DNA of 49,306 nucleotides from Chrysochromulina tobinii (GCA_001275005.1 JWZX01003347.1:1-49306); one strand, 5' to 3'; positions 3,063 to 46,143 are shown, counted from the stretch's first letter. Numbers and translations: made by a program. The notes: generated by a model not told the origin, from the sequence alone.

Positions 3063-3094
<32 letters not shown>

Positions 3095-6000
3095 ATGCAA
3101 CCTTTAAGCTCACCGCCGTGCGCGCAGTCGACTCGCCTGTCATCGTGCGGTATGTGCTCAGCGGGGCGGGCGCCGCCGGCCTGATTCCGCCGCCGTCGGC
3201 CAGCCTTATCATCCAGAGTTGCACCTGGGCAGTGACGATTACCGCGAGGTTGTCGAGCGAGCAACGGGAGCGCACGTGACAAGCAGGCTGCATCTCATCA
3301 CGGTCATCCACGGCGTCCCCGATGCAGAGCGATCCACGTGCTTTGCTGCCGCACGCCACATCGTGCGCGAGCTTCAGCCGCAGAGCACGGGGCTGATCGA
3401 GAGCGCGGAAGCCGTGCCGGCGCGTGTTTGTGCTCCGCTGGGCCCAGCGGAGCGGCTACTGACGAGACTGGATACTCTCAAGGCATCCCCCTCCCCCCCC
3501 GCCCCCCCCGCAAGGGTTGCACTTGGCAGCCAGGCGGCGGAGAAGGAGCGTGGTACTGAGGGGCTTCTCGGCGGTGTGATGGCCGCGCTCGACTTGGCGC
3601 TCAACAGGCTTGAGAAGGAGCGAGAGCAGCGGTTGCTGCGGGCAACGGCGCAAGCAGATCGGGATCTGTGGGCACTGCCACCGCCACCCTTCCGTGCGCG
3701 GGACGACGTCGTCGGCTGGTGCCGACGCGCGGTGGATGGCATCGTTCTGCACGCGGCGTCTCTGGGTGCGGCCGGTAAGCAGAGGCGGCAGCGATGGGTG
3801 GAGCAATCGGCCACGGCCCATGCGAAGCACTCGGATCGACAGCAGGATTCTCTCTTTATGATTCAAATCGTGCAGTACGGCCCAGCGCTCGCTCGAGCCC
3901 CGGATCCACTTGCTGGCAACGTGGGGTTCGCTCTACCAACCGACGTTCTCTCCGTCGCATCTCGACGAATCTCCGGATCTGGGCTCAAGCTCGCGGTGCG
4001 CTTGCTCATTGTGCAGCGACGATGCAGAGCCGGCGACGGCGCTGGCGGCCAAGGCGGCGCTGCAGACCATCGTGGCATGGGAGCCCACGCCGCTGTACGT
4101 CGCCCTGACTCGCAAAGCCCTTCCAGCGGCTGTGCGCCAGCTCAGCCAGGACGCTCAGCGCTGCTGCTTCGCGACGCCCCTCTCGTTGGCTTTACCGCCC
4201 ATCGCGCGTGTGCTGCATGCCGGGTTTGTCACGCAGATAGGCCAGCCGCCCGTCTGGTCGACGAGCCTACGGCTCATGCCCTCGGAGGGAGTCTGCTTGC
4301 TCTTCGAAGGGCCACCGCCCCACACATTTCTCCTCAACGGTTGTGAGGTGACCGCGCGCCTCCGCGGGCCTCTCCACCGAGCCGAAAGTGCTGAGGAGGC
4401 GTTATGTCGTCATGCCTTCCTCGATCCACCGCTGCTGGTCCAAATGCTCCGGCTAGTGCAGCGGCACGTGTGTGCGCTGCGTGTGGCAGCTGGAAGGCGC
4501 ACCGACGTCGTCGCAGCCGTCAAGTGGCTGAGGCAGCTCGTGATGGGACTGTCGGCGCCGCCCGTCAAGCTTGCCGGTCTTGACGCGCTGCACAAGCATG
4601 CGCTTGATGGCGCGTTGGCAGACCCTTCGCAACGCCACTCGATTCTGCGTGAGCGCCGACGGATGGCATCAGACCTGATGGTGGCGCTCAAGGAGGTGGA
4701 TGAGACGGCGCTGCTAGCAGCGGCGGCGGCGGGCTCCCAGGGCCTCACCGCCGCCTCTTTCCTTTCCAAGCCCTCGGAGCTCAAGTTTGGCGCTAAGGTG
4801 CTTCGTCGGGTGGCTCGCTCGGCTATGCCGGCGATCCGCGTCCCCTCGTTGCTTCGAGGGCTGCTGAGTGTCCAGAGTCGTCACGAGAGTCAGGATCGAG
4901 GAGGCGATGGCAAGGCGACGTGGACAGGTGATGAGGCGATGCCGCTCTCAAGCCACAAGGACCTTGCCGAGCGCGCGCTGTCCATGTGGGCCGAGCTTCT
5001 GGCGTTTGCAAACGCCGCCCTCCGCAGGGAGCGCACGGTGCCTCCGGGCGTCGGCGCCCTTCTCTACTCTTTTGGGATGGTGGGCATCCAGCTTCGCGTT
5101 GGCCGATCCGAAGCCGCCGCTATCAACCCCTGGGCCATTCGCATCGAATACCTCTCTCGCACTCCTTGCGACACAGTGACGGCTCTCTCTGCCCTCGACT
5201 GCGGCCACCAGCTCACGGATAGCACCGGTGAGCTCGCTCCAGATGTCTTGCCCCTCATCGACCCTGCCCTCGGCGGCAAAGCCTGCGAGGCGGTGGCCGG
5301 CTTCGTGAGATCGTCTCTCTATGCGACGCACCTCGCCCTTCTGTTCACCCGCTCACCCGCACTGCGCCTGCCGGCCCAGCGGGCGGCTCTGCTCGTCGTC
5401 TCGTTCGCCAAGGCGGCAGAGCAGCTGCTGCGCCGACGTGGGGGAGAGAGGGTCGCAGAGCCACGCGTCACGCGTCAGCCCTCCCGCTTTCAGCTGGATA
5501 CTAGCGTCGAGGACATGCGGCTCGCTCTCGCCATCTTGCACACCCTCGAGCTCACACAGGCGCACGCGACCGTTGTGCCCCAAGAGATGGCAAAGCAGCT
5601 CCTGGGACCGACTCCGGGAACATGTATGACCGAGGCGGGCGACGAGGGTCTCGACTCCCCCTGCCAGATCCTCGTCTTCCTCTGCCTCTCGCATGAGCTC
5701 TCCGCGCTCTTCGAGCCGACCGCAGAGGCGGCGGCTCAGCGCGCTCGGGTCGCTATGGCCCTTCTCGCCGAGGCTGTGTCGCGTTCGTGCCGCGTGCTGC
5801 TGCGCACGTCGCCGCCGCCGTGCGAGGAGCTCGAGGCTTGCTCGGGACAGAGCCCGATGATGCTCACCGCCCGCTCACTGGTGCGCAAGGCACTCGGCAT
5901 CAGCCCGGAGTCATGCCACGATGTGATGGCTGATGAGCTCGCCGAGCCGGCTGAGGTCAAGCATGCCGGCGAGTATGATGTTGACCTGGCGGTCCGCGCC

Positions 6001-7854: not shown

Positions 7855-10800
7855 CTAGACCTTGTATGGTTTAGTCATTGGCTTATTCGTTGGGGCTTGG
7901 ATCCTCGGTGGCATTGGGGGCTTGGCGGCTGGCACCTTGCCCTTGCGCCTCTTGATGAGCACATACAGAGCAGAGAGCACGAGGCAGCCTCCGAGGCCGA
8001 GACCGAGGCCGAGCCCGAGAGGAAGGGCGAGCGAATTGCTAGTGTTGGGAATGTTGTCGTTGGTCGTGAATGTTGGCGCTGAAGTGACGGTGATTCCGAG
8101 GAAGGAGCTGGCGGCCGAAGTCGAGCCAAGTGTGGTGGCGAGAGCGTTCGTGACGCCGGAGGCGGTGGAGCCGACGGGAACCGCTATGACAGCTGTGATG
8201 ATCACGGAGCCGGCAGCGACTTGGACAACGACGAAGGACGGGGGGACCTGATTGGGGGGCATGGGGGTGGTGAGGGAAGGGGGAGGAGAGATGTAGGGGT
8301 TAGAAGTGACGGGCAAGGGGTGACGAGGTAGGGGGGTGGGTAGGGAAGGAGAGGGTAGATGCGGCTCTCACCCCGGCCGCCAGCGCAAACTTGATTTGGA
8401 GATTCGTCATCCTCTGCTCATTGTAGTCAGACACGCTGCCGGCCGCCACAAGCGTCAGCGTGACCGTAGCGGCGCTCCTATTTGTGACTGTGGTGCTGCA
8501 GACCGCATCAGTGTTCCTATTGCATAGACTTGTGACGCCGGACTCCATGCACGTGCTGCATGCCGTGCACGGCGTCAGGCCGGTAGAGCTCCAGGTGGAC
8601 CCCGAGTCGCAGTTGGTGGCGTTGTTCACAATCGTAAACCCGAAGAGGCCCTGTGAAGAGAGGGAAGGCATGAAGAGGGGAGAGAGGGGAGGTGTGAAAG
8701 AGGGTAGGACATGTTCGACGCTTGGAGATATGGGGGGGGGGGCATGCAGGGGGCGTGCTTAGCAGATGCAGGGGGGGTGTAGTGCATGGGAGCTCACGAG
8801 GGAAGATACCGCCCTTGGAGATACATGGGAGATGCACATAGAGATACATGCATGCTGGGAGAAGAAAGGGGGAGAGTGCAGGGGAGCTCTCAAGCGCAGA
8901 CCGCCTTCTCACCTCCTTGAAAGATAGGGCCGACGCGGCGTTTCCTTGAGAGTCGACCCAAGTGCCCGATTCCCATCCCATCACGTACCTGCGGAGAGGG
9001 GCGGGGCGGGAGGTGTGAAGAGAGGTGTGCACCGCTGGTCGAGTGCGGAAGGCAGGGTAATGATGATAGGGAGAAGAGAAGTATGAAGGGCCTTGTGGAC
9101 GGCGCGCCGTTTGGATGGCGCGTGTGGACGGGCGCTATGAAGGGAGATGTGCAGAGAGGCTGCCGCTGCCATGGCGCGGGCGCTCAAGCGGAGACAAACG
9201 TGCGACGTGAAGAGAGGTGTGAAGAGAGGTGCAGAGAGAGCGGTGTGGAGAGGAGCGGAGAGAGGAGTGGAGAGAGGAGTGGAGAGAGGAGTGGAGGGAG
9301 GTGTGGGAGAGAGGCGGGGCGGGAGGCGGAACGGGAGGTGTTGAACAGAGGCGGTAAGATCCGTGTGAATAGAGGGCGGTGTGAAGACGTACGTGGCGGG
9401 TCCCGCGAGCGGAGGCAGTGTGAACACGACCGAATACTCGTTGGAGGGCGCCGGCGTCGCATTCAGCGCCGGGTAAGTCACAAAGCTGGCCGTGGGGGCG
9501 AACATGTTAGCCAGGCCCCTGGTGGCGTTGTTCAGGACGATGATCTTCATGTCTGCCTTCGGGGTGAGTCGGGAGCTCGATTTAAACGTCGCCGTCACGA
9601 CGACTGAATTGGCCGTCAGAGCGGGTGTGAGGCGAACAAGGGTCGGCCCTTCGGAGCAGCCTGTCGTGTAGCCGAGAGCCCTCGAAGGAGGCTGAGCACT
9701 AGTTGTCCTGGCCGCGAGCTTGCGCCGACGGCCGTTCACAGTTCGGAAGCTCGGGCTCGTCACACTTGCAGCATCGGGAGCGTCCGAATCCTCGAGCTTG
9801 CGGCGTCCAGCGGAGGGTGCGGAGGGAGGGTCAACATTGAACCTGGCTTGATTTCCTGCGCCATCGATGATGGCGCCATCATCGATCGCGATCGTGTAGA
9901 CGGTGTTCGGCTTCCATTTGCGGGGCTCCGAGTCCTCGTCGGTGGGATCTGAGAGGAGGCGGACCTCGACACGAGATTCGTCCTCGTACACGATGACCTG
10001 TTTCGGATCTGGCATCGCGAGATTGTGGAACCATCATGGGGTGGGGGGGAGGGTGGGTGAGAGGGTGTGTGCGGGATATTCTCCGAGGGAGGTGGGCGGG
10101 GAACGAGGGAGATGCAGGGTGGATGGCGCACCATTCATCGCGACGGTGAATGTGTCGACCGTAGTGCCGTTGTACTTGCCAGTAAATGAGATGTTCTTGC
10201 CTGGGACTGCTTCAATGTACTCCTGTGATAGATATGGGGGAGAAATGGGGGAGATTCTGTGTGAGATTGAGATCGCATGGGACCCGTCGAGATGCAGGCG
10301 AGGTGTGATGTGAGGGGGATTGCATGCCTCCTCGTTGAAGCAGAGGACGAGCGGCTGCGTCTCGTCCACGTCCGTGGCTCCCCATTTGGCGTCCGCCTCG
10401 GGGCACTCTTGCAGAGTCGGGGGAGTGGTGTCCGGAATCGTGTTGAAGTAGTAGTACTCAGATTCAGTGGTCATGGCGGTCTCGGCCATGTCGTAGATGG
10501 CGTCCGCGGGAATCTTGAGTCGGAATTGGCCACCCGCATAGAGCGGGCAGTTCTCGTTTGGCGAGATCAGGAGCTGCGCGCCGTCCACGTCGATATCGGG
10601 GTTTGTGATCTTCTCGCCATCCTCGTCAGTCGCGATGAGGGGGAGGGCGCAGTACGGTTCCGTATCTGAGTAGGATTCCCAGCACGATCCCCATCCCTCG
10701 TCGCAGAGCTCGTCAATGCTGATCACCTTGTCGGAGTCGTCTGGGATACGGATCGCGCGGGAAAAGGTCGCCTTGATCGTCGAAGCTGTCGTGAAGGCTG

Positions 10801-13800
10801 GGGCTGCGTGGTCGATGGACTTGTTCGCACTCTCGTACCCGGCACCCCATGTCTCGTCTGGCGTCACAGCGGGAGGCGTGAAGCCAGTCAAGGTGAGCGC
10901 ACCCGAGAAATCTTCCTGCAACGCTCGGCGACCTGAGACAGTGAAGGTCGACGAGAATCCCGCGACATTGTTGCCTAGGCCGTCGTGAAAGTAGCCGGCG
11001 GGCACCGTGACGGTGTATGTGCCGGCTGAGAAGGTTACGTTTGAGAAGGCAAAGTTGGCGGTGGAAGCGCCGTCCTCGAAGAGGTTTAGCGTGATGGTGG
11101 TGGTCGGGTTGCCGCCGGCTGGCGCGACGGTCGAAGGGGAGCTTGGTGGGAAGCTCGCTGGGCAGCTGCCAGCTGAGCAGGCCTTGACGGCGCGCGCCGC
11201 GACCTGGGCAGGTACGAACGGGGGCGAGGGAGAAGTGAATGAGAGGTATGTGTGTGAGATGCGTGTGAGATGAGGGGAGGTGCGGGGAGATGCGCACCTG
11301 GCCAGTCTGGAAGGCGCCGTGGACAGTCCCTCTGAATAACGCCGACGTGTGCTCGCCTGCAAAGAAGAGTCTCCCTCCGACATTGCGACCAAAGGCGTCC
11401 GTGATGGTGTTCTTCGACGTACCTGCCATGATAGAAGACTCGGGGCAACTCAGGGGAAGGTCGGAGAACGGCACAGCCAACGGCAGCAGCGATGGGGGCG
11501 GCAGCGATGGGTTGGTCGACGCACCGACTGCGACATACGTGTACGCGCCCTTCGCAAGTGGATTGGCGCGCCAAGCCGAGCGAACGATCTGAGGCGCATC
11601 CGTCGGGACCGTGACAGAAGTCGGGAAGATCTTGACCAGATTCGCTCGGATCTGCGGGGGAGATGCCGGGGAGATGCGCGGGAGATCGTGAGCAGGTTCG
11701 TCCGGAACTACGCCCAGGCACTTGATGGGTAAGAGGTGTGCTGGAGAAGCGAGGGAGAACGCACCTGCGCCCAGACCTCGGCGTCGCTCATCCCTTCGGC
11801 CGTGTCGGCAGCCGCACCCAGTGCAAACGTCATGAGCACCGGCTTGGTCGACAGCTCATGCACGTTGAGGAAGTAGGTGAAGAGGCCGCGGTTGGTCCCC
11901 TGGGCAAGGCCATAATAGTGCGTGCCTGACGGCCACCAGTTGGTTGGAAACAAGAGTGCGATCTTGACGACGTTGCCGAAACCAAGCTGAGAGATGCCAT
12001 TTGCCGTAGCTGTCGGGAGTGCCGGGCTGAATGTGACTCTGGAGCTCGCGTCGGTGCTCTTGAGCACCCCGAGGGGGATCGTGATGATCACGTAATCAGC
12101 GTTGTACGTGCTGCTGTCCGCAGTCGTCAGCACAACTCCCGTGCTGTTGTACGTGACGGACGTGACGCGCTTGTTGTACGTGACCGAGATGGGCTGTCGG
12201 CTGGCGGACAGCACGGCGGTCACCTGCAGGGTGCTCGAGCCGTCATTTACCCGGACCGCGCCGCTCTGCAGCGCCTCGTACATCTGCTTGTACCCTTGTG
12301 CCCACACGAGCTCAGCGCCGTTAAATTTGGAATCATCATTGTAGTTCCAGGCTGACAGGTTAGTGACCGGCCCGGCGGTGTTGAACTCAGTGCTGACGGC
12401 GAGGTGGTACTGGAACAGCTCCGAATCTCGAGTCTGCCCCGAGTTCGAAAGGCCGGCGAGCGCCTGCCAAAGCGAAATGTCCGTCGTCGCCGAATTCTCC
12501 TGTGCTTGTGAGAGCAGGCTTTTGTACGGGTTGTACTGATCGTCGCTGGGTTCCGAGCAGGCCGAGTTCTGGTTTTCGGTGCAGAGGCGAAGTTCGGCCA
12601 AATTGTTTCTCGTCCGGACAAGTCCGGCACCTTCAGCCAGGCCCAGGGCCGTCGCGATCTTGGTGATCGGATGCGACTCATTGCTCCCGTGGATCCAGCT
12701 GGCGCCCATGTCCGTCGGCGCTCCCAGGGCGCCGGCGGTGTCCCAGGCCGTTCCCGCCTCGGCAGCATTCAGCGTCCATGTACGGCCACCAATGCGAGTC
12801 CCAGCTTCGAGCACCGTCAGCTCCAGGTGTCCTCCGTTTGCAGCAGTATCCCACGTGTCGATCAGAGTACGCGCCGCGGCGAGACCCGATGTGCCTGCAC
12901 CGACGACGACTACTTTGACAGTTGTGGCGACTGGCGTGGCAGACCGTGGCGACGGCGACGGCGACGGCGGTAGGGAGAGCGGCGGCAAGTGTGACGGCGA
13001 TGGTGCCTCACCTGAGCCCATGTCGCCGAGTGCGTCAGGTGGTGCCAGCGAGGGCGGGGACGACGAGGGCGACGGCGACGGCGGTTGGGAGAGCGGCGGC
13101 AAGTGTGACGGCGATGGTGCCTCACCTGAGCCCATGTCACCGAGTGCGTCAGGTGGTGCCAGCGAGGGCGGGGACGACGAGGGCGACGGCGACGGCGGTT
13201 GGGAGAGCGCCGGCGAAGGCGAAGCCAGCAGAGGCGATGGTGGGGAGGGCGTGCCCGTGTTGGTCGTGCTGGTATTGCGACTGCTCAGGCGGCTGGCGGT
13301 GCCGTGGTGGCCGTAGATGAGCAGGTTCCAGCTGCGGAGCAGCGAGTTGACGCTCGGACCGTTTGCGAGCCGCCGATCGCGGATCGCGAGCGTCCACGTG
13401 CCCACCGGGCTTTCGCCCCAGCTGCGCACGCTCGTCATCTTCCAATTGAAGCGTGGCAGGTAGAGCGAGGGCTGCCCGTTCGTGCCCGTCCAGTTCGCCG
13501 CAAGGCAGTCGTTATAGTCGCATTCGCAAGACTGAGGGTTGTCGCAAATGCCATCATTACTCGACGTGCACGTGTCGTCCTCGGCCGAGCAGCCCACGAC
13601 CGGCGGGTTGGACGTCTCGGGCCGCGGGCCGGGGGTCAGGACGGAGTGCGTGCCCGAGGGCGAGGTGAGCTCGAGCTGCAAGTCGCCGCGCGACGAGTGG
13701 TTGAGGTTGACGAAGATTTCGATCCACTCGATCGCCCACGCCTGGCTCTGTGCGCCGACCGTGACACTGGTCGACAGCGTCGAGCCATCGTGCGGGACGG

Positions 13801-16800
13801 TGAGCTGCTGCGACGAGTTCGCAATAATGCGCCGCTCAATCCCCCAGTTGGTCCACGAGAGCGCGGCGGCCACGGCCGCGCTGGCGTCGACCATGCCGAA
13901 GCCGTACTTGATGTTGTGGATGAAGCCGGCCGCGTTCGTGGTCCAGAGGGAGCTAGTGGGGTCGTTTCGGCTCGTCGTCGCCGCGAGGATCCCCGTGCAC
14001 GTCGCGCCAGCCGAGCAGCGGATTGGCTTGGAGCATGAGCGCGACCACGCCCGAGACGACGGGGCATGCATACGAAGTTCCCTGCCCCTGCTCGGCACAG
14101 CCGCCGCCTGTTGCCGCGACGTGCCAGCTGTTGCTGTGCTGAGTTGCGTCGCCGCCCGGCGCGGAGATGAAGAGCGACGAGCCCGTCACCGAGTAATACG
14201 AGTGCAAGCCGAGCTTGTCGGTGGCGCCGACGGTGATTGTGAAGCGCGAGTGCAAGTACTGCTCCATGTTGACGTCCTCACCTTGGGCGTTCTCGTTGCC
14301 TGACGACATGACGTACACGATGCCACGCCCGCTCCGCCCCTCGAGGACGCCACGCTGCAGGGTCCGTTTGGTCGCCCAGGGCAGGTGCGTGTACGCGCAT
14401 GTCATCCAGAGGTGCGTCCACGAGGCGCACTCGCCGTCCGCGTCATAGTTGGACACGTCCTGGCAGTAGGTCGAGATGACTGCTTCGCACGTGCTCAGCG
14501 GCGACGTCCAGCTGGCCCCAGGGCACTCGGAAGCGCTGCACGGGCTGGTGCCCGAGGCGGCCGTGGCCGCGAAGGGGCACCCCTGCAGCTGGCGCTGCCG
14601 GAGCTTGCGCCGCCCGGAGCTAGCGAGGGCTGTGCACGGGTCGATCCCCCACGAGTTGGATGAAATGTGGTTTCGGGCCATGTTGCCGATTAACATATTC
14701 GTGACGGTGTTGCCGTTCATTCCGCACTTGGACAGTGTCGCACCATACGCGACGCCGCGAGAGCACTGGTCGTTGCCGGCCGCGAGCGCGATCGCAGCCA
14801 CGGTAGTACCGTGGCTGCCGGTGGTGTGCGTCGGGCACGACCCCAACGCATCATACTTGCCCGAAAAATCCGGGTGCGTCTCATCGGGCCCATCGTCGAC
14901 AATGTTGATCGTCACGCCAGCACCAGTGTAGCCTGCTGCCCAGGCGGGCTGCAGGTTGATCAGAGTGTGCGCCCAGGCGTTTGTCTCGTAGTAAGGGTCG
15001 GTGACGTTCGACGCCACGCAGCCGCTGCTGTACGTCCAAACATCGTGCGGGCAGAGGACACGATCTCCAGGCAACATCGTGCTGGTCTCCATCGGACCAG
15101 TCGCACACAGCGCGCCCGCGGCGCACCACGCGTTGGCGGATTGGTCGGCCATGCAGCTGCTGCACGTGTAGAATCCGGATCTGAAGGTCAGCTGCCGTCT
15201 GTGAAGGTCGAAGAAGTTGGCGGCGGAAGCGCCGTCCTCGAAGAGTCTACGAGGATTCGACGTGATGTTGGTCGAGGTGCCGCTGGCTGCCGCGACGGTG
15301 GCGACTGGCGTGGCGGCAGTCCGCTGGAAGACAGGGGCCGAGAATCCGAACGAGATGGCAGAGATCGTCGCGGGCACGTTGGCGGTTGCAGCCGGCTGGG
15401 TTGTGGCGACGGTGGGCACGGGACGGGCCGCGGTGACGGTGAACTTACCGGACGGCGCCCAAAAGGCGCAGCCGGTGGTAGTCTGACCAGGGACCTTGGC
15501 CATGTCGGCGACGACACGAATCTGGGCCACGGTTGAGCCGACCAGACTCGTCGGGAGCACGACGTATGCCGAGCCTTCTCCCTTGTTGTTGAGCTTGACG
15601 AGGTGCTGGGATCGGACGAGGTCCGTCCAAGCGAGTCCTCCGTTGGTCGTCACTTCGAAGGTGAACTTGGCGCCCTTGACATCGTCCAGCCCGGGGCTCG
15701 CCGCCGGGTTTTTATAGCCATCGAGCTTAAAGGTGACGAGGGTGATCCCCGCGGGCACGGACGCGCCAGCGGCGGGCTGCTCGACGAGCATGGGCCCCAA
15801 GTCGACGACATTGACCTTGGTGATCGCGGCGTGCCAACTTCCATACGTGAGGTCTTGGCTGGCATTCGTGGGCTTTGCCGCCATGTAGTTGTCACGGACG
15901 GTCATGGCGAAGTGGATGTCTCGGGCCGTGAAGGGGAGCCTCTCCCCTGGCCAGAACGCCGACCCTCCGGGGACGACGATGGCCGCCGTCATGTTCGGGA
16001 AATTGCGCAGGAAGCCATGCGGCGAGGGGGAGACGGACCGAAAGAGGGGGCCCTTCCTGAAACCGATCGACATCGACTCTGCAAACTCCGCCGGGTCGAC
16101 TTGCTCCTAACTTGCTCCCAGGTGTAGGCGAGCACATCGGCCGCGTTCGGGTCGGTGCCCGAGCCTTGCAGGAAGAAGGGAGTGCTCTTAGGGATGGCAC
16201 ACGTCGCGGGCACGTTGGCGGTGGGCCGTTGGTTCGCGATCACGGTCCTGGTGCCGCACTGCTGCAGGTTCATGTCGTCGTTCAGTCGAACGTTGGCCTG
16301 GAAGTACTTCTCCTGGAACTCGTTCAAGTTGTAGACGTGGAAGTAGGGATCCGAGCGCATCTGAATGTTGTCGTCATCGCAGATCCCAGCATAGGTGACG
16401 AGCGTAGAGCCTGCGCCAATCTCCATCGCGGACGCGGCCATGAAATTGGAAGGCGAGCAGCTCGACCCTTTGCCGGACCATGTGTGAGACGTCCCGAACT
16501 GATGAGAGAACTCATGTGCGACGAAATCCACATCGTAACCATCGCCGACGGGGACTTTGCCGGCGGTGGCGCCGTTTGCCTTCGCGCTGAAGATTGGTTT
16601 CTCACCAGACCAGAACCCCGTCACCGGATCCTTGGTCCAGTGGGGAGACTGCCTGCATGGGTACATGCCGCCCATTCCTGGGAGATGCGTGGGAGATGCG
16701 TGGGAAGGTGTGGGAAGGTGCGGGGGCATGCGATGGGAGGCGCTCGAGGAGTTGGGGGGGAGATGGGGGTGAGATGTGGGGTAGGCCGCACCTGAGTCCA

Positions 16801-18250
16801 TGCCCACATGGAACATATGGCCGAGGTCGTAATCGGTCCGATTGACTCCCGTGGGGGTTGCGGTCTTCTTTGACTCAGGAGATGAGGGGTCGCCGATGAA
16901 CTCAATGAACCACTCGCCGTCGTTCATAAAGGCCTCGTTATTTCCGTTGGGCAGCCCGACTTGGTTGCTGGCTGACCATTTGGGGTAGTGAAGCAGCATA
17001 CCTTGCTTATCGATCATCACCATGTTGAGCCCCATCTCGCGACGCCAGATGCCGTTCGAGCGCGTGCAGGTGTTGACGATCGTTGCGAGCGCCGCCTCCT
17101 TGCACTTGGTCGCATCGCACGGATCAGTGTTGCCCTCGGTGTTCTCCTTGCACGGCGGGCAGCCACTATGGCCTGGCCAGCGGTACGGGATCGTGCACAT
17201 ACCGTTGTTACATACCTGAGGCAGGGTGGGAGTGTGAGGGTGGGGGCGAGCGTGAGGGCGAGCGTAAGGGCAAGGGGTGAGGATGAGTGAGGGTGGACCG
17301 AACGAAAGCGGCCGCGGCGGGTAGCGTCACGCCCCGGGGGAGGCGACCGGCGGTGCGCGCGCGCTGAGCAGCCGACGTGAGCGTCAAGGAGGGTGTTGAA
17401 TGTGAGGCTGAGATGGCAGCCAGACTGGAGCATGGCGCACCGAGGGGGTCACCATGCCGAAGACGTACTCAAAGCTGACCGCGACAGCCATCCGGAGCGT
17501 GCGAATGGTCTGATTCCCCTCAGGTGGGGGGTGTGTAACGGTCCAGATCGGATTGAAGGGCGCCGCCTGAAGCCGCCGCCCGTCGTGAACATCTCCCTCC
17601 GTTGTGAACGTCTCTGCGAGCCGGCGCCCATCGTGCACGTCTTCAGAGATCTTGGTGAACGTGCGCACCCCCGGCTCGCCCCGCTTGTTGGAGCTGTGGT
17701 AGACGGTGTACAAGTCCGTACGGCTGTGGGTGTGAGGGTCGATGTGGCACCGCCCCAGGTTCGGCTCGCCCTCGGCGCCCCCAATCCAAATTTGGCCGCG
17801 CACGCCTTGGATGGAGACGGTCAGGTCAGCGGTGTGGGCCGACCGATCGGCAGGAGGGGAGACCTCGACTCCGTGATAGGAGCGGATCCTGGGGAACTCG
17901 GCCTCGAGGCCGGCCGGCATGACGGGCGACTTGGTGAGTTTGAACGTGGCGGCACCACCGCCCAGGCAAAGAGGAAGGGAGATCTCCGAGCCCTCGACGA
18001 TCCCGAGCGCCGCTCCATCAAACACGAAGTTCTCATTGTCCTCGAGGTGCCGCCGCTTCAGCTCGGGGTGACTCAGGTGGAGCGAAACGAGCCGCACCGT
18101 GTCCGAGGGTGCCCGACGAACATACGCGTCGCCCACCTCGTTGCTCAAGTGACGCCCATGGAGCGGCGCATCGGTCACATCGGTCCAGTGGATACTCGGC
18201 CGAAGCTCTGGCAGTGCAAACGCCGCTGCGACGAGAAGAGCGAAGATCAT
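7855..18250 (-). CDS. ~2,900-aa secreted type-I membrane multi-enzyme protein: signal peptide, reprolysin-like M12B Zn-metalloprotease, kexin/furin-like S8 protease + P domain, FAD amine oxidase, Big_5/SbsA-like Ig domains, Cys-rich module, TM helix
   Basis: Manually spliced exons: 18250-17453, 17215-16792, 16677-11765 (with an 11-nt duplication at ~16100-16119 and an extra G at 13991-13994), 11651-11525, 11422-11298, 11203-10328, 10222-10132, 10008-9393, 8988-8913, 8650-8372, 8247-7855. All junction phases match and the total is 8706 nt after removing those 12 nt. N-terminus MIFALLVAAAFA; C-terminal TM LALPLGLGLGLGLGGCLVLSALYVLI followed by KRRK. Confidence 0.75.
11190..12920 (-). other. Flavin-containing amine oxidase (polyamine oxidase-like) domain of the polyprotein
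   Basis: VVVVGAGTSGLAAAR (GxGxxG), LEAGTRIGGR, DMGASWIHG, ADYVIITIPLGVLK, LGFGNVVKIALLF, W..NPLAKGAYTY, RLFFAGEHT...GTVHGAFQTG, spanning three introns. Confidence 0.92.
12956..13210 (-). repeat. 114-nt coding tandem repeat (Pro/Ser-rich linker, 2+ copies)
   Basis: PPSPSPSSSPPSLAPPDALGDMGSGEAPSPSHLPPLS duplicated nearly identically between the P domain and the oxidase. Confidence 0.9.
13310..13830 (-). other. Proprotein-convertase P domain of the polyprotein
   Basis: IEWIEIFVNLNHSSRGDLQLELTSPSGTHSVL ... WKMTSVRSWGESPVGTWTLAIRD ... SWNLLIYG, with a Cys-rich insert. Confidence 0.9.
13860..15010 (-). other. Subtilisin/kexin-like S8 serine protease domain of the polyprotein
   Basis: Catalytic Asp (IVDDG), His (HGTTVA), oxyanion Asn (SSGNE) and Ser (GTSYACPVVSG), plus SNSWG, EGRSGRG, WRDVHG and YGFGMVDA, typical of kexin/furin proprotein convertases. 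Confidence 0.92.
15850..17510 (-). other. Reprolysin-like (M12B, bacterial type) zinc metallopeptidase domain of the polyprotein
   Basis: YDLGHMF; YDVDFVAHEFSHQFGTSHT (HExxHxxGxxH); MEIGAGSTLVTYAGIC..NIQ..SDPYFH; IPKSTPFFLQGSGTD..YTWEQ; GPLFRS; MTVRDN. The prodomain lies in exon 18250-17453. Confidence 0.9.
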
Positions 18251-18867
18251 TTGACCTGCGCGAGAGGCGCAGACGTGCGCGCGTGAGGAAGTGCACGGCG
18301 CCAACCGGTGGGAGACCTGCCCAGGGCCTAGCTCGGCGCCCGACGCAGGCCCATGGGCGCGCATTACAGTCAACAACTGATGAATTGCAACTGACGCAAG
18401 TGACACGTGCGAAACTTCGGGATTTCATTTCGTCGAAAAATGTCTTGAGATCAAACCCGAGATTTTGAAAAAATCTTCCGTCAAAAGGAGACAAGAAATG
18501 GTCCCAAACCACAATCTTATCTCGACAGACTTGCCGAGGCTGGCTGCCGAGGTGAGCCAGCCGTAAACGGCTAACCCCCCAGCCCGGCAGAAGCCGAGGA
18601 ACACAAGTACAAGAAAAGTGAATTTTCAACACAATGGCACCCAGTGGACGACGAGAAAAGACAATTTCTCGTGGCCAACCAAATATTAATAACGGGCAAG
18701 ATGCATGTCGTAGAACGCAAACCACATTTCGTCGCATGCATTCCGTTGACGAACACGCAAAGAAAATACATGAACGCCAAAAAAGAGTTTGCAGAAGGTC
18801 GTGGCCGGCCCGGGGCTGCTCCCTGCCCTTGTTGGACCTGAACTTTCGCTGTCATTAGGTACTCCGC

Positions 18868-21800
18868 ATGGCCGATGCTGTCGCGGAGTATGAGATTCGG
18901 AGGCGTGCTCCCCGCATGGCCTGGAACGACGAGACGCTCAAGCTCAAGGCGGCGTCCAAGTCGGCGCGGGAAGTGGCGGCTCTCAAGGACGTCGACGGTG
19001 CCAAGCAACTACATGTACAGCTACAGCAGGTGCTACAGAGGGACCCGTTCGCCGCACTTGGTGAGCTCTCGCAGCGCCTCTTCGGAACGTTTGGCAGTCC
19101 CGAGACGCCACCGACGCCAATTCCCAATATCGAAGTCGGTGGCAGAGGAGGAGGAGGCGTCGGCGCTGGCGCGTGGCGGCCAGTGACTCACCCCAAAGGC
19201 ACACGTGAGCCCGCTCGTGAGTTCTTAGCTTGGCTACGAGCGCACAATCTCGAGCTCAACGAGATCCTCTCCGACGACTGTGGCGTTCATGCTCGCGTGG
19301 TGCCTCGCGGCGAAACCACGCACCACCCTGCTGTCGACGCCCGAAACGACGCCCGAAACGACGCCCGAAACGACGCCCGAAACGACGCCTGCGCTACCAT
19401 TGGTGACCACAAACTCCCTCGGCCCGCGGCATCCATCTCGTCACCGGCGGCATCGATCTCGTCCCCAACCACGGGGCTCGCTCCCCATCGGCTGACCCTC
19501 CCGAGACTGCCCTCTTCAGGGCCGTCGACGAGCTGCTCCATTAAGTCTCCGCCCGCCGCAGGAGAGCCCAACACGACGCTCCACCCCGGCACGCCGTCAC
19601 CGCCGCCCAGCCAGTGGTCGGGAGACAAGCCGAATGGCACGCCGCCATCACCGCCCAGCCAGTGGTCGGGAGACAAGCCGAATGGCACGCCGCCGTCACC
19701 GCCCAGCCAGTGGTCGGTCCAGAGACCAAATGGGCATTCAAATGGGCCGAGAAAGGGCGCGAGCGCACACACGGACGCGGGCCGCTCGCCTCAGGCGTCC
19801 CGCCGAGCGAACGGCTCCGAGGGGCGCATGCAAGTGCCCAGCACGGCGCCCGCAGGCTCCGAGCGCCCGCGACGCATGCAAGTGCCCAGCACGGCGCCCG
19901 AAGGCTCAGAGCGCATGCAACGCCTCGACTTCGAGACGCTCGAGCTCTTAGAGGCACGCCAGGGAGGCACGCTCGCGCTCGACTCGCGCCGAAATCCGAC
20001 CAGCTCGTCGACGGAGCGCCTGCCGTCGATGCAGCTCAGCAGCACTCCGATAGAGCGGGGGCTCCCGCTCGATGCACCTGATGAGGGACGCAATCAGATG
20101 CAATCAGAGGTCATCAGATGCAATCAGTGGTCATCAGAGCGGGGGCTCCTCGGGCAGCTCCTCGGTGCCTCGCGGCTCACGCCCGCCGCGCACTACGTCG
20201 AGGCGGCCGCGGCGATACGTGGCACAGTGGACGGCGAGCGTGCGCGGATGAGCGCCGTTTGGTCACAACTCGACCTTCGTACGCTCGCCGCGCCTCGCCG
20301 CGCATACAGCGCGCGCTCTCCTCCCCATAGTGCTCTCTCCTCCCCTCCGTGCTCGCTCCCCCGAGCGCGCGTGCCTTACCCCATCCCCCGGCGGTCGCCT
20401 GATGAGGGATACAATCCGAGCTCATCATCATATCTCATCAGTGGCAATCAGGCCTCCTTGCCCCCGGCGGTCGCGCGACTGACCGCCGATTGCTTGACTG
20501 TGCGCTGCGCCGTGCCGGCAGGCGTGGGGCTCGCCATCCTCGAGCGCCAGCTCAAGCCCAAGGATCTCGTCCAGCTCTGGGACAAGAAGGGCAAGGGCGG
20601 GGTGAGCAAGGTCGAATTTCGTCAAGGCCTCATCCACAGCCTGGGGATCAGCGCGGAGATGAGGGCGGCCGACATTCTCTTTGACCAGCTCGACGATGAC
20701 GGCGGCGGCACTCTCGACTTGGGAGAGTTGGACTTGGCGCTGCGAAAGGTACTTGACGAGGCGGCGACGCGAGAGGAGAGCGAGGCGCATGCAAGTGCTC
20801 ACCACACGGCACCTCGTGTCCGCAGGTACGCGACAAGGCGGCGAAGCTACGGGCGAGCGAGGCGCATGCAAGTGCTCACCACGGCGCCTCGTGTCCGCAG
20901 GTACGCGACAAGGCGGCGAAGCTACGGGCGAGCGAGGCGCATGCAAGTGCTCACCACGGCGCCTCGTGTCCGCAGGTACGCGACAAGGCGGCGAAGCTAC
21001 GGGCGAGCGAGGCGCATCTCGGCGCGGTGGAGGCGGCGTGGATGGCGCAATTGACGAAGCTCGAGACGATTGCCAGCGCGACCAAGAGTGCGGTGCGGGC
21101 TCTAGAGGTCGCAGCCGCGTTGGGTGTGACGGCCGCTTCCATGGAAGATGCAGTCGCGGCGTTCACACAGGGGCCATCCGAGGGCGAGAAGGAGAGAGAA
21201 GGGGCGGCGAAGGTCGGAGCGACCATGCGGCCGATGAGCGAGCGCGCGCTGTGGAGAGACGCAGCTTCACCAGCAGAAGCGGCCGCGACCGCGGCGGCCG
21301 CCTTGACGCTGGCCCTGCAGTTGCAGCAATCTCTTGCAGAGGAGGAGGCGGAGCGCGCACGGTCCTCGATCCTCGCGCGCGAGGAGGCCGAGAGGCGGCG
21401 GCGCGAGCTCGAGGTGCTCGAGGCCTTCGACCGCACGCCCGTGCTGCCGTCGCTCGAGCTGCAAGGCCGGCTCGACGCGCTCGATATGGAAGTGCACGAG
21501 CTCAGCCGCGCGCCGCCGATCGCGCCGAGCTCCAACGCCGATACGAAAGTCGGGCAGGCGCTGGCCCAGAAGAATCTCATGACGCCAAAGGAAGTGGCCA
21601 AGGCTTGGGACTCCAAGGGGCGGGGGGAAGTCGGCCGGCTCGACTTCCGACTGGGGATTAAGGCGCTTGGGGTCAAACTCGACGAGAAGGAGGTGGACAG
21701 GCTGTTTGGCAGCCTCGACGCGGACGGTACCGGCGCCCTCGACGTGGCTGAATTGCACGAAGCCCTCCGGGTGCTGCGCGAGGCTGCTATGGAGGCTGAG

Positions 21801-22400
21801 GAGGCGCCGAAGCGACGGCTTGCGAGGCAACTGCGTCTCACACAGCACCGTACAGTCCTCGCGCAGGTGCTCAGGGTCACCGCTGAGGCCGAGGCGGCGG
21901 CGGCTGCAGAGGCCGCCGCCGCCGCTGCGTCGGCGTCGGCGGCGGCGGCGGCGGCGGCGGCTCAACGGGCGCCTTCGTGGACCAAAAGACCGAACTCCCC
22001 GGCTGCTGCTGCTGCTGGGTCGGGCGCCACGACGAGCGCCCCGTCGGAAGGGAAGCTCAAGGCGACAGCTGCGACGGAGCGGCGGCGGGACGCGATTCGG
22101 GCCCAGATGGTACTGGCCGATGCGGAGCGGGAGCTCGTCGCAGCACACGAGCGCGCGGACGCGGACGCGGACGCGGAGCGCGCGCGCTGGCGACACAACA
22201 GCCCTACCGGTACCAAGTCGACTAGCGTCCTCGTGAGCGCCGCGAGCGTGCTGACCAAAGGGCTGGGCAAGGGGCTGGGCAAGGGGCCGAACACGACCAC
22301 GTTGATGCCTAGCGCCAGCCCAAGCTCAGTTCGGAGCTTGTTGAGTGGCGCTGCGGCTGCGGGTGGGGCGAAGAAGAACGCTATGGAGGTTTCGATCTGA
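18868..22400 (+). CDS. EF-hand calcium-binding protein (two EF-hand pairs, Pro/Ser-rich N-terminus, coiled coils), spliced
   Basis: ORF 18868-21054 has WDKKGKGGVSKVEF and LDDDGGGTLDLGEL; ORF 21027-22400 has WDSKGRGEVGRLDF and LDADGTGALDVAEL. They join through an acceptor at 20975 (VRDKAAKLRASEAHLGAV in frame). Confidence 0.75.
19588..19735 (+). repeat. 48-nt coding tandem repeat x3
   Basis: GTPPSPPSQWSGDKPN repeated. A (CGCCCGAAACGA)4 tract also lies at ~19337-19390. Confidence 0.9.
20779..21017 (+). repeat. 75-nt tandem repeat x3 (36-nt exon-like part + 39-nt intron-like part containing the GCATGCAAGTGCTCACCACGGCGCC motif)
   Basis: Unit GTACGCGACAAGGCGGCGAAGCTACGGGCGAGCGAG + GCGCATGCAAGTGCTCACCACGGCGCCTCGTGTCCGCAG read directly. 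Confidence 0.9.
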
Positions 22401-22641
22401 AGGGGTTTTGGACAGGGGCGGTGCGATCAAGGAGTCCAGATCCCGCGGTTTGCTTCCGTGGGGAACGAAATGCTGTGGGTGCGTGCCTTGCCGAGAGCAG
22501 CGAGCGAGCCATACAAAGACGCGGTAGCTTGCTCACACTCACTCTCACTAACTCACTCACTCACTCAGCTTGCATGCAAATCATAATTCGAAACGTCTTC
22601 GCAAACTGAAGCCTCTCTCTCGTTCCCCATCTTCGAGAGGG

Positions 22642-25245
22642 ATGCCGCCGACGAGCCCCGTGGCTCCGAACCCCGTGCTCGGCTTCTTCGACAGCATCTT
22701 CTCCCCAATCGACAACCTCTTCAAACCGAATGAGAGCCCCACGAAGGGTGAAGTCGAGGGGGACGATGGCCCGTACTGGCCACCGCCGAAGCAGCCGAAG
22801 AAACCCCCAGAAGAAGGAAGCACACCCGGAAGAGTGAGCATCATGACGGAGAAGGACGCTCGGTTGGAAGGAATGCTGCAGCGGAAGCGCGAGGCTGCCG
22901 AGCGCCCATCCTCAATGGGCACGGTCATCGAGAGCAGTTCGACCAACCCGGTGACTCACGGAATGCTGCGCGTCGTATCGGGAGGCAGCAGTCAGTTGTC
23001 CGCACAGCAGGAGTTTGAGTTGAAGAAGGCCAAGAGGCGGGCGGAGGAGGAGGCCAAGGCGGCGGCTGGAGCGGCGCCGGCAGCGGTGCCCAAGACGGCC
23101 GCGGCGGCACAAGAAGCGAAAGCCGCACAAGAAGCGGTCGAAGCGGCACGCGCATATCGAGCCTATCGAGCAGCGGCACGTGAAGCGACTGCTGCCGCAC
23201 TGGCTGAAAAGGCGGCGGCGGATGTGGCGGCCACAGGCACCGACCTCTCTGACGACGATGGCGGTCTTGGCCGTCTTGCCCATGGCGGCGTCGACGCCGC
23301 CTCAAGGGACGACCCGAAGAAGGCATGGAAGAAGGCGGCTGAGGAGCCAGCCATGAACGACGGAGCGGCGGAGCCTGCTGCCATGAACGACGGAGCTGAC
23401 AACGAGGCGGACGACGAGGCGGACGAAGAGGTGGACGGCGAGGAGGTCAAGAGGGCGGCTAGTCTCTGGTCAGACGAACAAGCGCCGGCTCTGCCGCCTC
23501 GGACGCCGACGCCGCCGCGCCCGATCAAGGCTCGCGATGATCAGACCGCGGCACGCCTCGGGCGGCTGCCGCACGAGGTGCTCGTGGACCTTGTGATCGA
23601 GGCGTGCGCGACGAGCGAGCACATGCGCTGCGCCTTGGAGCGCGCCCTCGCGCAGCATGTTCACGGTCCCGAATCTCCGACCAGCGCCCTCTTGTCGTCA
23701 CCAGACATGCGCGTGCCTCTCCTTGTGCCTCTGACGGTGCGACGGGTGTCGAGGAGCCCCGCGGGGGTTGGCGCGAGTCCCGTGGGGCGTTCGTGGCGCC
23801 AAGAGTGGGTGGACGCGATGATGGAGCGCGGCAAGCTGAATGGCGATGAGTACAGCCGATCGATGTTCGAGTCGGGTGGCGTCGCGTCGATAGAGAGGAT
23901 CATGATGGACCTAACCGTTCCTATCCAGAGCAAGGTGGACAGCGGCTGGTCGCGAGAGCATGCCGAGGCATATACGCTCATTGGCCCGTTCCTCGCTGCG
24001 CCGCTCGCAGCCGCCACGCGGGAGCGCTCGCCCAGGTACGCGGCGTGCATGCGTGCGCTGTGCGAGGCTCTCGCGGATCAGGCGAAGCGGCTCACGGCCC
24101 CAGCCCCGCCCGTCTACATCAACCTGACCGGCAAGCAAGGGCTAGCCGCCGAGGACCCTGCATGGGATGTACTGCGTTCTCCAAAGGCACAGCCAGGCCT
24201 CCGCTTCGTCACCGACGGCCTCGGGAAGGCGTTCCTCCCGACGCCCAACACCTTCCCCGACGACAAGGGCTTCTGCGTGGTCATGAGCAGGGGAGGACGC
24301 GACGTGTATGAGCTGCAGGACTCGGATGTAGTGTGCCTCCGGAGCGCGCCTACTGACGCCAATGGCTGCCACTCGCTCATTCCGACGAGCGGCGGCGGAG
24401 CGCACGCGCTGCCGCCCTTCGCGACTGTCACACTCGAGAAGGTGATGCAGCCGGGCGAGTGGGAGGTGTGCGGTCAACATGTCAAGAGGCGGCTGCTGAT
24501 GGTGGGGGTCACGCTGAGCGACGATGCTGCGCAGAAGCCGTCGAACAGGCGCGCCATCTACGCGGGCGTCGCTCAGCTCTCGCCGCGCGGACCTGCCGAG
24601 CTGAGCTACGCCGAGCTCCCCGCCGCCCCACTCGATCTCACGAGCGAGAGCGCGAGCGAGATCGTGAGCAAGATCGTGCCGCGCGAGCTCCACTTTGCCG
24701 ATTATAAGGAGGCGGCCGCTGTGAAGAAGGCGGCAGCCGTGAAGGAGGGGGCAGCTGTGAAGGAGGCTGAGATCAAATCCTCGAGACCTCCGAGATCAAA
24801 CGATAGGCGCGCTCGCCGGGAGAGCGCCGCGACGGGCACCCCGCCGATGAACAGCGCTGGGCCCAAGCTTCCAGACTCGCCTTCAGAAAGCCTCCTTCAG
24901 AAGAGGGAATCGTTCGCAAAACAACGAGAATTCCTCAGAGCCAAGGAGCGGGAAGCCCTCCTGAACGAGGAGAATAACCCGCTGTACAACCCCGACATGC
25001 CCCCCACACCGCCCCGACGTGGCCCCACGCCGCCGCCCCGCGGTGTCCCCATCGCCGCGGTGATCTGTGCGCCCACGCCGCCGCCCCGCGGGCAGAGGAG
25101 CCCCGAGGAGGCGAGCGCCGTGGTGAGCACCGCGGTGAACTCCGCGGGGGCGAGCGCCGATACCGTATCGAGCGCTGCGCCCTTTTCGAAGAGTCCTGCG
25201 GTACTCTTTCTCGGGGACTCGCTCAAGGATCAGGTGGCGGAGTGA
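22642..25245 (+). CDS. Hypothetical protein; low-complexity ends, central globular domain weakly resembling an ADP-ribosyltransferase fold
   Basis: Long ORF 22570-25245 with first ATG at 22642. Globular part ~23900-24520 (PPVYINLTG...ALPPFATVTLEKV). It may splice on at 25233 to 25368. Confidence 0.65.
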   Translation: MPPTSPVAPNPVLGFFDSIFSPIDNLFKPNESPTKGEVEGDDGPYWPPPKQPKKPPEEGSTPGRVSIMTEKDARLEGMLQRKREAAERPSSMGTVIESSSTNPVTHGMLRVVSGGSSQLSAQQEFELKKAKRRAEEEAKAAAGAAPAAVPKTAAAAQEAKAAQEAVEAARAYRAYRAAAREATAAALAEKAAADVAATGTDLSDDDGGLGRLAHGGVDAASRDDPKKAWKKAAEEPAMNDGAAEPAAMNDGADNEADDEADEEVDGEEVKRAASLWSDEQAPALPPRTPTPPRPIKARDDQTAARLGRLPHEVLVDLVIEACATSEHMRCALERALAQHVHGPESPTSALLSSPDMRVPLLVPLTVRRVSRSPAGVGASPVGRSWRQEWVDAMMERGKLNGDEYSRSMFESGGVASIERIMMDLTVPIQSKVDSGWSREHAEAYTLIGPFLAAPLAAATRERSPRYAACMRALCEALADQAKRLTAPAPPVYINLTGKQGLAAEDPAWDVLRSPKAQPGLRFVTDGLGKAFLPTPNTFPDDKGFCVVMSRGGRDVYELQDSDVVCLRSAPTDANGCHSLIPTSGGGAHALPPFATVTLEKVMQPGEWEVCGQHVKRRLLMVGVTLSDDAAQKPSNRRAIYAGVAQLSPRGPAELSYAELPAAPLDLTSESASEIVSKIVPRELHFADYKEAAAVKKAAAVKEGAAVKEAEIKSSRPPRSNDRRARRESAATGTPPMNSAGPKLPDSPSESLLQKRESFAKQREFLRAKEREALLNEENNPLYNPDMPPTPPRRGPTPPPRGVPIAAVICAPTPPPRGQRSPEEASAVVSTAVNSAGASADTVSSAAPFSKSPAVLFLGDSLKDQVAE

Positions 25246-25795
25246 CTTCCAAATGGCGCCGTGGTGAGCACTTGCATGCGTCTCGCTCTCGGGGACTCGC
25301 TCGAGGATCGGGTGGCGGAGTGACTTCATCTGCACACGCCCATCGGCTCCAACGTCGTGTCGCCCAGGGTTCGGCAGCTCGTTGCGTCCTGTGGGAGCCC
25401 CCGGGCAGAGTAGGGACGACATCTGGTGGGGATCGCTATTTCTGGTCTGATCGGTGCGTGTTTGTGGAGATCCGGAGGTGGCTGACTGTTACTGTCTGTC
25501 CGTGTTGGGTCATGTGTGGAGACACCGGAGGTTATCATACGTTTGGCTCGGCCGCGCCATGCAAGAGGCATATCGGTGTCGCGTCGTCCCAAAAGTAGAG
25601 CCCAGTCGCGAGTGGGGACATTGGATGTCCACGTAACCACGAGATGATGTAGCTGTTTGACGGTCTGTGTTTGTTGTGCTGATTCTAATTACATGTTCTA
25701 TGTACATGTAGATGAACTGGCACGCATGCATCCACAATTCGCGAGCTCCGGCGCGGCCACGCCCCCTCTTTCTGTTTCACTCCCAGGTCGCCACA

Positions 25796-33217: not shown

Positions 33218-33298
33218 CAAAAGTGATGAGAGTTTCGTCGATTTTGATTCGTACGCGTGAAATCACAGGAGGAAAGTCCGTTTCATCTCGAACCCTCC

Positions 33299-34093: not shown

Positions 34094-34363
34094 GTGTGAA
34101 TGCTGCTGCAGCTGCTGCTGCTGCTGTGAAACACACAAACGCGCACACTCTCCGGACCCCCAAGCACGAGGGCCTCCACATCATGCGAAGGTTCAATACA
34201 ACGCTCCCGCAGTCAAAACGGGTCGACGGCGCTCGTGCAAGCGCGCCTGCCGGGGTCGCGTTTACAGTACATGTACGTTTACAGAGACTACTGACAGAAG
34301 GCCAGGTGCAACTGTGAATGTGTACGCGTCTGCTGTGAGTTTTGGTTGAAATTCGTTTCGCGC

Positions 34364-43643: not shown

Positions 43644-43811
43644 CCGATGCGCGTCAAGACCGAGAACTGACCAGGGGGAGGGTTTGCGCAGGGTTAAAGG
43701 TAGGTGCAAGACGCAAGTGTGAAAACTGGTCCTGTACAGTAGGATCCTATGTTCACAGCCAATCTTTATAAATGTTCACATCTTCAAACGTCAGCGGTCG
43801 AACGGCGATTC

Positions 43812-46105: not shown

Positions 46106-46143
<38 letters not shown>

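Follow-up and report, generated by a model that had tools for sequence, protein, structure and literature searches.

Does a large surface precursor that carries its own subtilase domain cut itself into separate enzymes, or are its recurrent Arg-Leu motifs read by another protease of the cell? The question is raised by a gene of the haptophyte Chrysochromulina tobinii, which is located on the minus strand at 7855..18250 of a 49,306-nt stretch (GCA_001275005.1 JWZX01003347.1:1-49306; this whole stretch is the window hereafter, and all coordinates refer to it). A sequence-only reading of the window had listed eleven motifs of the RR(x)L type, in which the residue before Leu is optional, and had proposed that the precursor is cut at them, perhaps in cis by its own S8 domain. 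Our analysis favours, with a probability of roughly 0.62, that the motifs are maturation sites cut after Leu, in trans, by a resident protease of the secretory pathway rather than by the S8 domain that the chain itself carries. Trans cleavage after Leu is favoured because RxL fits all eleven motifs, because diatom precursors and Toxoplasma ASP5 provide precedents, and because Ile or Val never replace Leu; cutting in cis is not supported because an S8-less paralogue retains the motifs and a frameshift precedes the S8 domain.

Motifs of the precursor and their enrichment

The window DNA is GC-rich and eukaryotic, with short introns. From Pfam matches and reading of the sequence, the predicted product of the gene (11 exons; ~2,900 aa when both frame breaks are read through) is a large mosaic type I membrane precursor that comprises, in this order, a signal peptide, a presumed prodomain, an M12B reprolysin-like domain, an immunoglobulin (Ig)-like domain and half a Big_5 domain, followed by S8 and P domains, Ser/Pro repeats, a flavin amine oxidase, the remainder of the Big_5 domain, two further Big_5 domains, a TNFR-like Cys repeat (a weak Pfam match only), a transmembrane (TM) helix and a tail.

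All eleven motifs were recovered on the minus strand, as are all features of the gene given below, in the coding frame of the spliced model and within ~10 nt of the positions first reported. GRHLS (18143..18157), which is RxL only, lies early in the presumed prodomain, and KRRHLE (18041..18058) lies within it. The tandem GRRLAE and GRRLQ (17567..17629) is found at the presumed border between the M12B prodomain and catalytic domain; like KRRHLE, it was located from the sequence and by comparison with relatives, and the border itself was placed not from a domain match but from the strand that follows, which we take to be the first of M12B catalytic domains. PRRLFE (15237..15254) and HRRQLT (15186..15203) precede S8, GRRKLRQRQLQ is located in a Cys-bounded loop (14577..14636) of the S8 catalytic domain, directly after its Ser-Trp-Gly strand, and DRRLA (13364..13378) in a P-domain loop between the last two strands. 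GRRALQE (10913..10933) separates two Big_5 domains, and GRRKLE and GRRRKLA (9713..9808) are found near or after the end of the third, GRRKLE appearing to sit in the loop ahead of its final strand. The claim that the motifs mark linkers and domain borders is thus correct for six of them (GRRLAE, GRRLQ, PRRLFE, HRRQLT, GRRALQE and GRRRKLA) and fails for the two in the prodomain and the one each within the S8 catalytic and P domains. RxL is the sole pattern that fits all eleven, RR being present in ten.

The enrichment was assessed on the 2,836-aa lumenal part of the protein with 5,000 global and 5,000 local (60-aa) shuffles. RR(x)L occurs 10 times, versus 0.59 in global and 0.78 in local shuffles (p=0.0002), RxL 20 times (7.7/8.1), [KR]R 18 times (7.4/8.1) and RxLx[EDQ] 8 times (0.9/1.0). 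No enrichment was found in this part for RxxL (11 vs 7.7/8.2), Rx[KR]R (1 vs 0.3/0.4), RR(x)[VI] (1 vs 0.9/1.0) or the reversed motif (2 vs 0.6/0.8), and the shuffles rule out RxxL and the furin pattern Rx[KR]R as the enriched pattern of this protein. Ten neighbouring open reading frames (ORFs), a small control set that includes intron sequence and served in place of a genome-wide background, are flat (8 RR(x)L vs 6.2). The RR(x)L pattern was defined post hoc; it recurs in independent protein sets. Among 61 relatives of the S8 domain that bear the Cys-rich insert described below it occurs 42 times versus 9.7 expected, and among 50 short-loop, mostly bacterial relatives 13 times versus 12.7, the two sets being split by similarity rank with redundancy retained; RxxL counts are 236 vs 133 and 206 vs 154, respectively. 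In this protein and in the 61 relatives Ile or Val never stand in for Leu, and the residue following Leu in the relatives is mostly Q, D, E, S or A.

The cassette copy, its paralogues and its reading frame

Four builds are found among the relatives of the gene. The first consists of M12B, Ig and Big_5 domains and is without S8 or oxidase (P0121-P0124, L003, L004); in the second the oxidase lies within the Big_5 loop with no S8 ahead of it (P0125-P0127); the third has S8 and P added (window, L001, L002, P0001); the fourth comprises S8-P proteins that stand alone and mostly have a TM segment (P0002-P0009). By this comparison, the S8-bearing copy is a recent exon-shuffled derivative. The 3' part of the S8-less paralogue is ~82-84% identical in DNA to the window gene, and the S8 plus oxidase cassette is flanked by a duplicated Big_5 segment (first copy 15214-15299, second copy 11052..11131; 32 nt at 97%, 37 nt at 84%). 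L003 and L004, which are without S8, P and oxidase, retain seven of seven motifs outside the cassette, with some flanks changed. GRHLS is retained in L001-L004, P0128-P0132 and P0134, the RRAL of GRRALQE in L001-L004 and the S8-less P0121-P0124 amid differing flanks, and the RRKL of the last pair in the S8-less paralogue. PRRLFE and HRRQLT, the only motifs to travel with the cassette, were gained in the S8-bearing copy: PRRLFE arose when 9 nt were inserted that repeat the neighbouring DNA in inverted orientation, and HRRQLT arose through a 14-nt deletion, by which parental Big_5 DNA is read in a different frame, together with a single substitution. Selection for this gain is possible.

The window itself joins two loci. 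Its part above ~17800, including the 5' flank, matches the S8-less locus (at the seam, 17800..18260, 0 mismatches to L003/L004 and 16 to L001/L002), and the gene below matches the S8-bearing locus; one 5' flank is common to L001, L002 and L005, and another to L003, L004 and the window. On these matches the window is a mis-assembly or a recombinant of two paralogous loci. That the S8-bearing gene exists as such is evident from L001 and L002. Loci L002, L003 and L004 also look mosaic along the gene, and L006 has a third 5' flank on the same first exon, which suggests a further locus or species. At 14086-14092, by the catalytic Ser motif, three bases differ from L001/P0001 and match stand-alone S8 paralogues, which suggests collapsed paralogues or gene conversion.

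Ahead of S8 lies a frameshift that the sequence-only reading had missed. An 11-nt insertion (16108..16118; a 9-nt direct repeat with a spacing of 11) is present in all three cassette-bearing assemblies (window, L001, L002), which may all be one strain, and in neither of the two S8-less ones (L003, L004). The shifted frame ends at a stop at 15991-15989, before S8 is reached, and of the 22 GT..YAG pairs that would restore the frame none reaches a pyrimidine tract of 0.6. The premature stop overlaps an in-frame ATG (ATGA, 15992-15989), where P0001 starts; termination-reinitiation at this point was considered and set aside: this Met codon was already present in the parental sequence, and a protein begun there would be without a signal peptide. 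The second frame break, one extra base at 13995..13995, is present in the window only, being absent in L001, L002 and the contigs of four of four runs, and is probably an assembly error. Judged from these sequences, the S8-bearing copy is probably not translated through to S8.

RNA contigs recovered eight of the ten introns of the model as joints, including a GC-AG intron at 10223-10327, and shifted the first splice donor to 17440; introns 10131-10009 and 8912-8651 had no joint in the contigs, another joint being listed at 10020-10171. At the insertion, the X13 run shows no deletion at a depth of 11.7, a weak hint that the 11 nt are kept in transcripts.

In a self-cutting polyprotein the protease would be in frame with its sites, the sites would occur only where the protease is, and they would separate all of its enzymes. 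Here an insertion and a stop intervene in three assemblies, most motifs occur independently of the cassette, and the gene model offers no RR(x)L that would part the amine oxidase from the P domain or from Ig, and none immediately behind the M12B catalytic domain. The release of separate enzymes, as earlier proposed, is therefore possible only in part. Self-cutting in cis by the S8 domain of the precursor is very improbable, even though the catalytic Asp, His, Ser and oxyanion Asn are intact, the cassette copy acquired two motifs shortly before S8, and the Big_5-S8 junction is transcribed; the absence of an S8 prodomain, which the sequence-only reading had pointed out, is correct for this protein but is a trait of the whole family, stand-alone relatives included, and no sign of fusion. 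As far as can be told from the sequences, the idea of a self-cleaving multi-enzyme polyprotein does not hold.

The S8 family and its internal RxL loop

The S8 unit (13300..15170) comprises a Cys-rich lead-in, a kexin-like catalytic domain and a P domain (P_proprotein E=6e-15), and sequence alignment places its intact catalytic residues at Asp 14897, His 14813, Asn 14297 and Ser 14075. The two S8 models (predicted local distance difference test scores, pLDDT, 87.9 and 83.3) have a furin/Kex2-like fold, and the predicted S8+P model superimposes on mature furin 111-574 with Z 46.8 and a root-mean-square deviation of 2.0 over 435 aligned residues. For S8, ESM Atlas returned nothing more specific than generic subtilase clusters. 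At 84% identity, a Chrysochromulina tobinii protein is the nearest named relative of the domain, and named members of the family are from a haptophyte, a diatom, Parmales and pelagophytes.

Like kexin and furin (S8B), these proteins have the triad, the oxyanion Asn, the P domain and the fold; unlike them, they have a Cys-rich N-terminal domain, a Cys-rich insert of ~80 aa and an internal RxL loop, and are without S8 prodomain and two of the acidic S1/Ca2+ residues. The S8 pro-domain (PF16470) was found in neither the window protein nor any of 9 and 32 relatives (0/41), and in two of two short-loop controls; the 32 relatives scanned were taken from 126 and are mostly long, some perhaps N-terminally incomplete. 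In complete relatives the N-terminus is formed by a signal peptide and a Cys-rich stretch that resembles LNR/PSI. In furin numbering, these S1/Ca2+ residues are Asp258 and Glu331 (PMC8453481, PMC12649860, in the portions available). Mapped by motif offset and Kex2 alignment, not by coordinates, they correspond to Pro and Val in the window protein; across the sets of 38 and 76 relatives the former is predominantly Ala, Gly, Pro, Thr or Ser and the latter predominantly Thr or Ser, whereas Asp is kept at 258 in 25 of 48 short-loop relatives. Asp is common in the family at position 257. The equivalents of Asp301 and Asp306 are both Glu in the window protein and are acidic in 28 and 25 of the 38 relatives and in 36 and 30 of the 76. 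By its sequence, the family is a kexin scaffold that fails two defining features of convertases, and its specificity cannot be assumed to be dibasic.

In furin, the Ser-Trp-Gly strand serves as the substrate alignment template Ser253-Pro256 (PMC8453481, available part). Between this strand and the next lie 30-46 residues in short-loop relatives versus ~100-120, with 8-10 Cys, in this family. In the window protein the loop at 14577..14636 opens the ~80-aa insert with its 8 Cys, and both loop-bounding Cys are invariant in 53 of 53 rows. Among 38 representatives (<70% identity) the loop contains RxL in 24 (6.1 in within-loop shuffles) and RR(x)L in 18 (2.0). In a tree computed with the loop left out, RxL occurs in every main branch, and 11 of the 38 have neither RxL nor RR. 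The result was replicated on 126 new 50%-identity representatives, in which profile alignment gave 205 domain hits, of which 128 did not span the loop and 1 was without a Cys. The remaining 76 loops contained RxL in 55 cases (vs 16.9) and RR(x)L in 33 (vs 5.7), and Gln follows the RxL in 36 of the 55; a few members of this set are near earlier rows, and a slight bias is possible as the search profile contained the loop. A stricter regular expression, superseded by the profile alignment, found the loop in only 20 of the 126, 15 of them with RxL. In both models, pLDDT is lower in the loop than elsewhere in the domain.

By eye, the differences among the stand-alone proteins P0002-P0009, which are close paralogues, cluster at the catalytic His, behind the Ser-Trp-Gly strand and next to the oxyanion Asn, a pattern that looks like diversification of the substrate pockets. 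Some relatives (P0012, P0013, P0137 and further long matches) have two or more S8 units per chain, P0137 reaching 3,332 aa with 11 matched stretches, and a Cys-rich insert of the P domain (window 13470-13600) is common to the S8 family. The kexin-like S8+P protease ASP of Aeromonas sobria (3wqb, solved with a separate chaperone; Z 36.3, 27% identical structurally aligned) is bacterial, and insert and RxL loop are not shown there; it reportedly is without a propeptide and is said to possess an occluding region whose nicking raises activity. In a literature search of partial coverage, which is no proof that none is published, we found no account of RRL/RXL processing in haptophytes or of the loop of the S8 family; the motif is not mentioned in the main texts of PMC5684398, PMC4742977 and PMC10290126, in the parts available and with supplements outside the scope.

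Candidate proteases and significance

The precursor would enter the endoplasmic reticulum. In the Golgi, a cut at GRRLAE/GRRLQ would remove the M12B prodomain, and cuts at GRRALQE, GRRKLE and GRRRKLA would free M12B plus Ig from the membrane anchor; in proteins of the S8 family, the exposed Cys-bounded loop may be nicked to give a two-chain enzyme. ADAM and ADAMTS M12B pro-proteins have a basic processing site between prodomain and zinc domain and a membrane anchor; unlike in these, the reprolysin-like domain is here combined with Big_5 repeats and the site is RRL, not Rx[KR]R. The Plasmodium PEXEL consensus, read by plasmepsin V, is RxLxE/Q/D. In Toxoplasma, ASP5 acts in the Golgi and cleaves behind RRL, which may be located at either end of its substrates (PMC6212819, cited from the text available). 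The present motifs resemble these TEXEL/PEXEL sites in RRL and in the enrichment of RxLx[EDQ], and differ from them in that this is a free-living alga without host export and the middle residue varies. Diatom silaffins, silacidins, cingulins, frustulins, Silicanin-1 and SiMat7-like proteins carry RXL, RRL or RRxL after the signal peptide and at module ends, as here, and diatom precursors lose their RXL segments to a protease that the accessible portions of these sources describe as unknown (PMC5525289, PMC4557024, PMC5501833). The window protein shares with RXL precursors the Leu-specific enrichment of RxL and RR(x)L and the border position of six of eleven motifs, and its hydrophobic N-terminus and one C-terminal TM segment, both read by eye, may place it in the lumen; unlike diatom precursors it is a multi-enzyme surface protein with no link to silica, and some sites are inside enzyme domains.

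The identity of the cutter can be narrowed only tentatively and by analogy. An ASP5- or plasmepsin V-like aspartyl protease is the foremost candidate, though still a doubtful one. An SKI-1/S1P-like enzyme, the next in rank, appears unlikely. The rule for the mammalian enzyme is R-X-aliphatic-Z, with Z not Val, Pro, Cys or Glu, and RRLA is a known S1P site (PMC8310232, as far as its available part goes), so that the RxxL earlier attributed to S1P is not its rule. Of the twelve RxL instances within the eleven motifs ten fit this rule and two have Glu at Z, and unlike S1P substrates the protein has no Ile or Val variants. A true kexin cutting after RR is rather less likely, and stand-alone members of the present S8 family come last.

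Several observations weigh against the preferred reading, cleavage after Leu in trans. DRRLA, the weakest candidate site, was rejected as a conserved one, with RRL in only 7 of 48 proteins in which the strand was found and RRI or RRV in 4 close paralogues; the two junction motifs could have arisen by accident, given how simple the underlying mutations are; the off-frames of this GC-rich DNA yield 1-19 RR(x)L per 2,900 aa and the frameshifted tail contains one. RxL is not enriched over the 61 whole insert-bearing relatives (131 vs 129), in which the polybasic Rx[KR]R (19 vs 4.8) favours a kexin, and 14 of 38 and 21 of 76 loops are without RxL. As to the frameshift, one real intron of this gene scores a tract of 0.59, just below the 0.6 filter; the cassette copy is transcribed and spliced, its Big_5-S8 junction being found in contigs of three of three RNA runs (one of 1,127 nt with zero differences); and at the insertion the contigs of X6, X14 and X1 (three of four runs) carry the uninserted form only, although by depth these are probably the S8-less paralogue.

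Some of these points are also the case for the rivals. That most motifs are uncut, being sorting or binding signals or partly chance from Arg-rich, GC-biased DNA, would suit the three motifs inside folded domains as well as the small indels and motif-rich off-frames, but it is improbable in view of the strong in-frame enrichment with flat control ORFs, the retention of motifs amid diverged flanks, the replication of the loop RxL in an independent set, and the cleavage of the same motif in diatoms and Toxoplasma (PMC5525289, PMC4557024, PMC6212819, each in its available portions). Nor is it likely that a host kexin or furin cuts after the dibasic pair, Leu being merely a preferred P1' or P2' residue. 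The RR of ten motifs, the [KR]R count, the polybasic relatives and a few polybasic loops without Leu (3/38, 5/76) agree with it, as does the favourable effect of Leu at P2' on furin (PMC8310232, same part); GRHLS and 22 of 76 loops have RxL but not RR(x)L, though, Ile and Val do not substitute, this protein shows no excess of Rx[KR]R, and mature silaffins are, in the text available, without the whole RRIL or RRNL (PMC4557024).

About as improbable as the kexin is a role of the stand-alone, prodomain-less S8 members as the RxL maturase, self-activating at the internal loop and then cutting RXL precursors in trans. Self-cleavage sites of convertases usually mirror their own specificity, and the loop directly follows the substrate-binding strand and carries RxL in all main branches; the S8 prodomain is missing, the Asp258 and Glu331 equivalents are replaced while Asp is common at 257, and the taxonomic span includes a diatom. 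For S1P, the self-cleavage site is described as mirroring specificity (PMC8310232, in that part). On the other side, the loop is flexible in the predicted models, the 301/306 positions frequently retain an acidic residue, which would suit a basic P1, the motif is missing from between a quarter and a third of the members, and the family is expanded and pocket-variable, more like diverse surface proteases than one housekeeping maturase. A bolder form, equally speculative, would have a widespread algal kexin-like family that exchanged its prodomain for a Cys-tethered RxL bait loop, nicks itself to two chains, and is the RXL maturase of silaffins, Silicanin-1 and such precursors. The proposal that the motifs are processing signals, being enriched, Leu-ending, retained and matched by diatom and Toxoplasma sites, stands as a reasonable one.

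Among the other features of the gene, the likely signal peptide (18215..18250) consists of 12 hydrophobic N-terminal residues, and a likely TM helix with a basic stop-transfer stretch and a short tail is found at 7956..8033; both were read by eye. The M12B zinc-binding motif HExxHxxGxxH is present as HEFSHQFGTSH (16484..16516; Reprolysin_4 E=2e-9, 37.8 bits vs a cut-off of 22), and ESM Atlas gave a weak, below-threshold hint for the presumed M12B prodomain. The Ser/Pro-rich linker with 114-nt repeats (12950..13250) holds zero RR(x)L. The flavin amine oxidase (11190..12920; Amino_oxidase E=9e-40) sits complete in a Big_5 Ig-domain loop of a surface protein, with the same insertion in the S8-less P0125-P0127, and P0125 and P0127 have a further small Cys-containing insert within it. 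Upstream of the gene lie several EF-hand genes (window 18868-28243 and 36940-41388) and a 1,482-aa ORF that combines WW, acyltransferase-like, EF-hand and C2 domains; PARP, amino-acid transporter, pseudouridine synthase, ankyrin/SAM, synaptobrevin, U-box and APC10-like matches are found at 1312-3279 and 32306-48719.

The RXL/RRL signal is known from diatom shell proteins and apicomplexan parasites, and the present locus suggests the same secretory code for a haptophyte. The motif and its use at module borders were already known; an RxL loop conserved inside the catalytic domain of kexin-like proteases without a prodomain would be a new variation on it. The signal survives, and is newly gained, during exon shuffling of a family of surface enzymes. 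The prodomain-less family with its RxL loop is a concrete candidate for the diatom RXL protease, and even if another enzyme cuts the loop, a two-chain convertase-like protease matured within its catalytic domain would represent an unusual mode of regulation.

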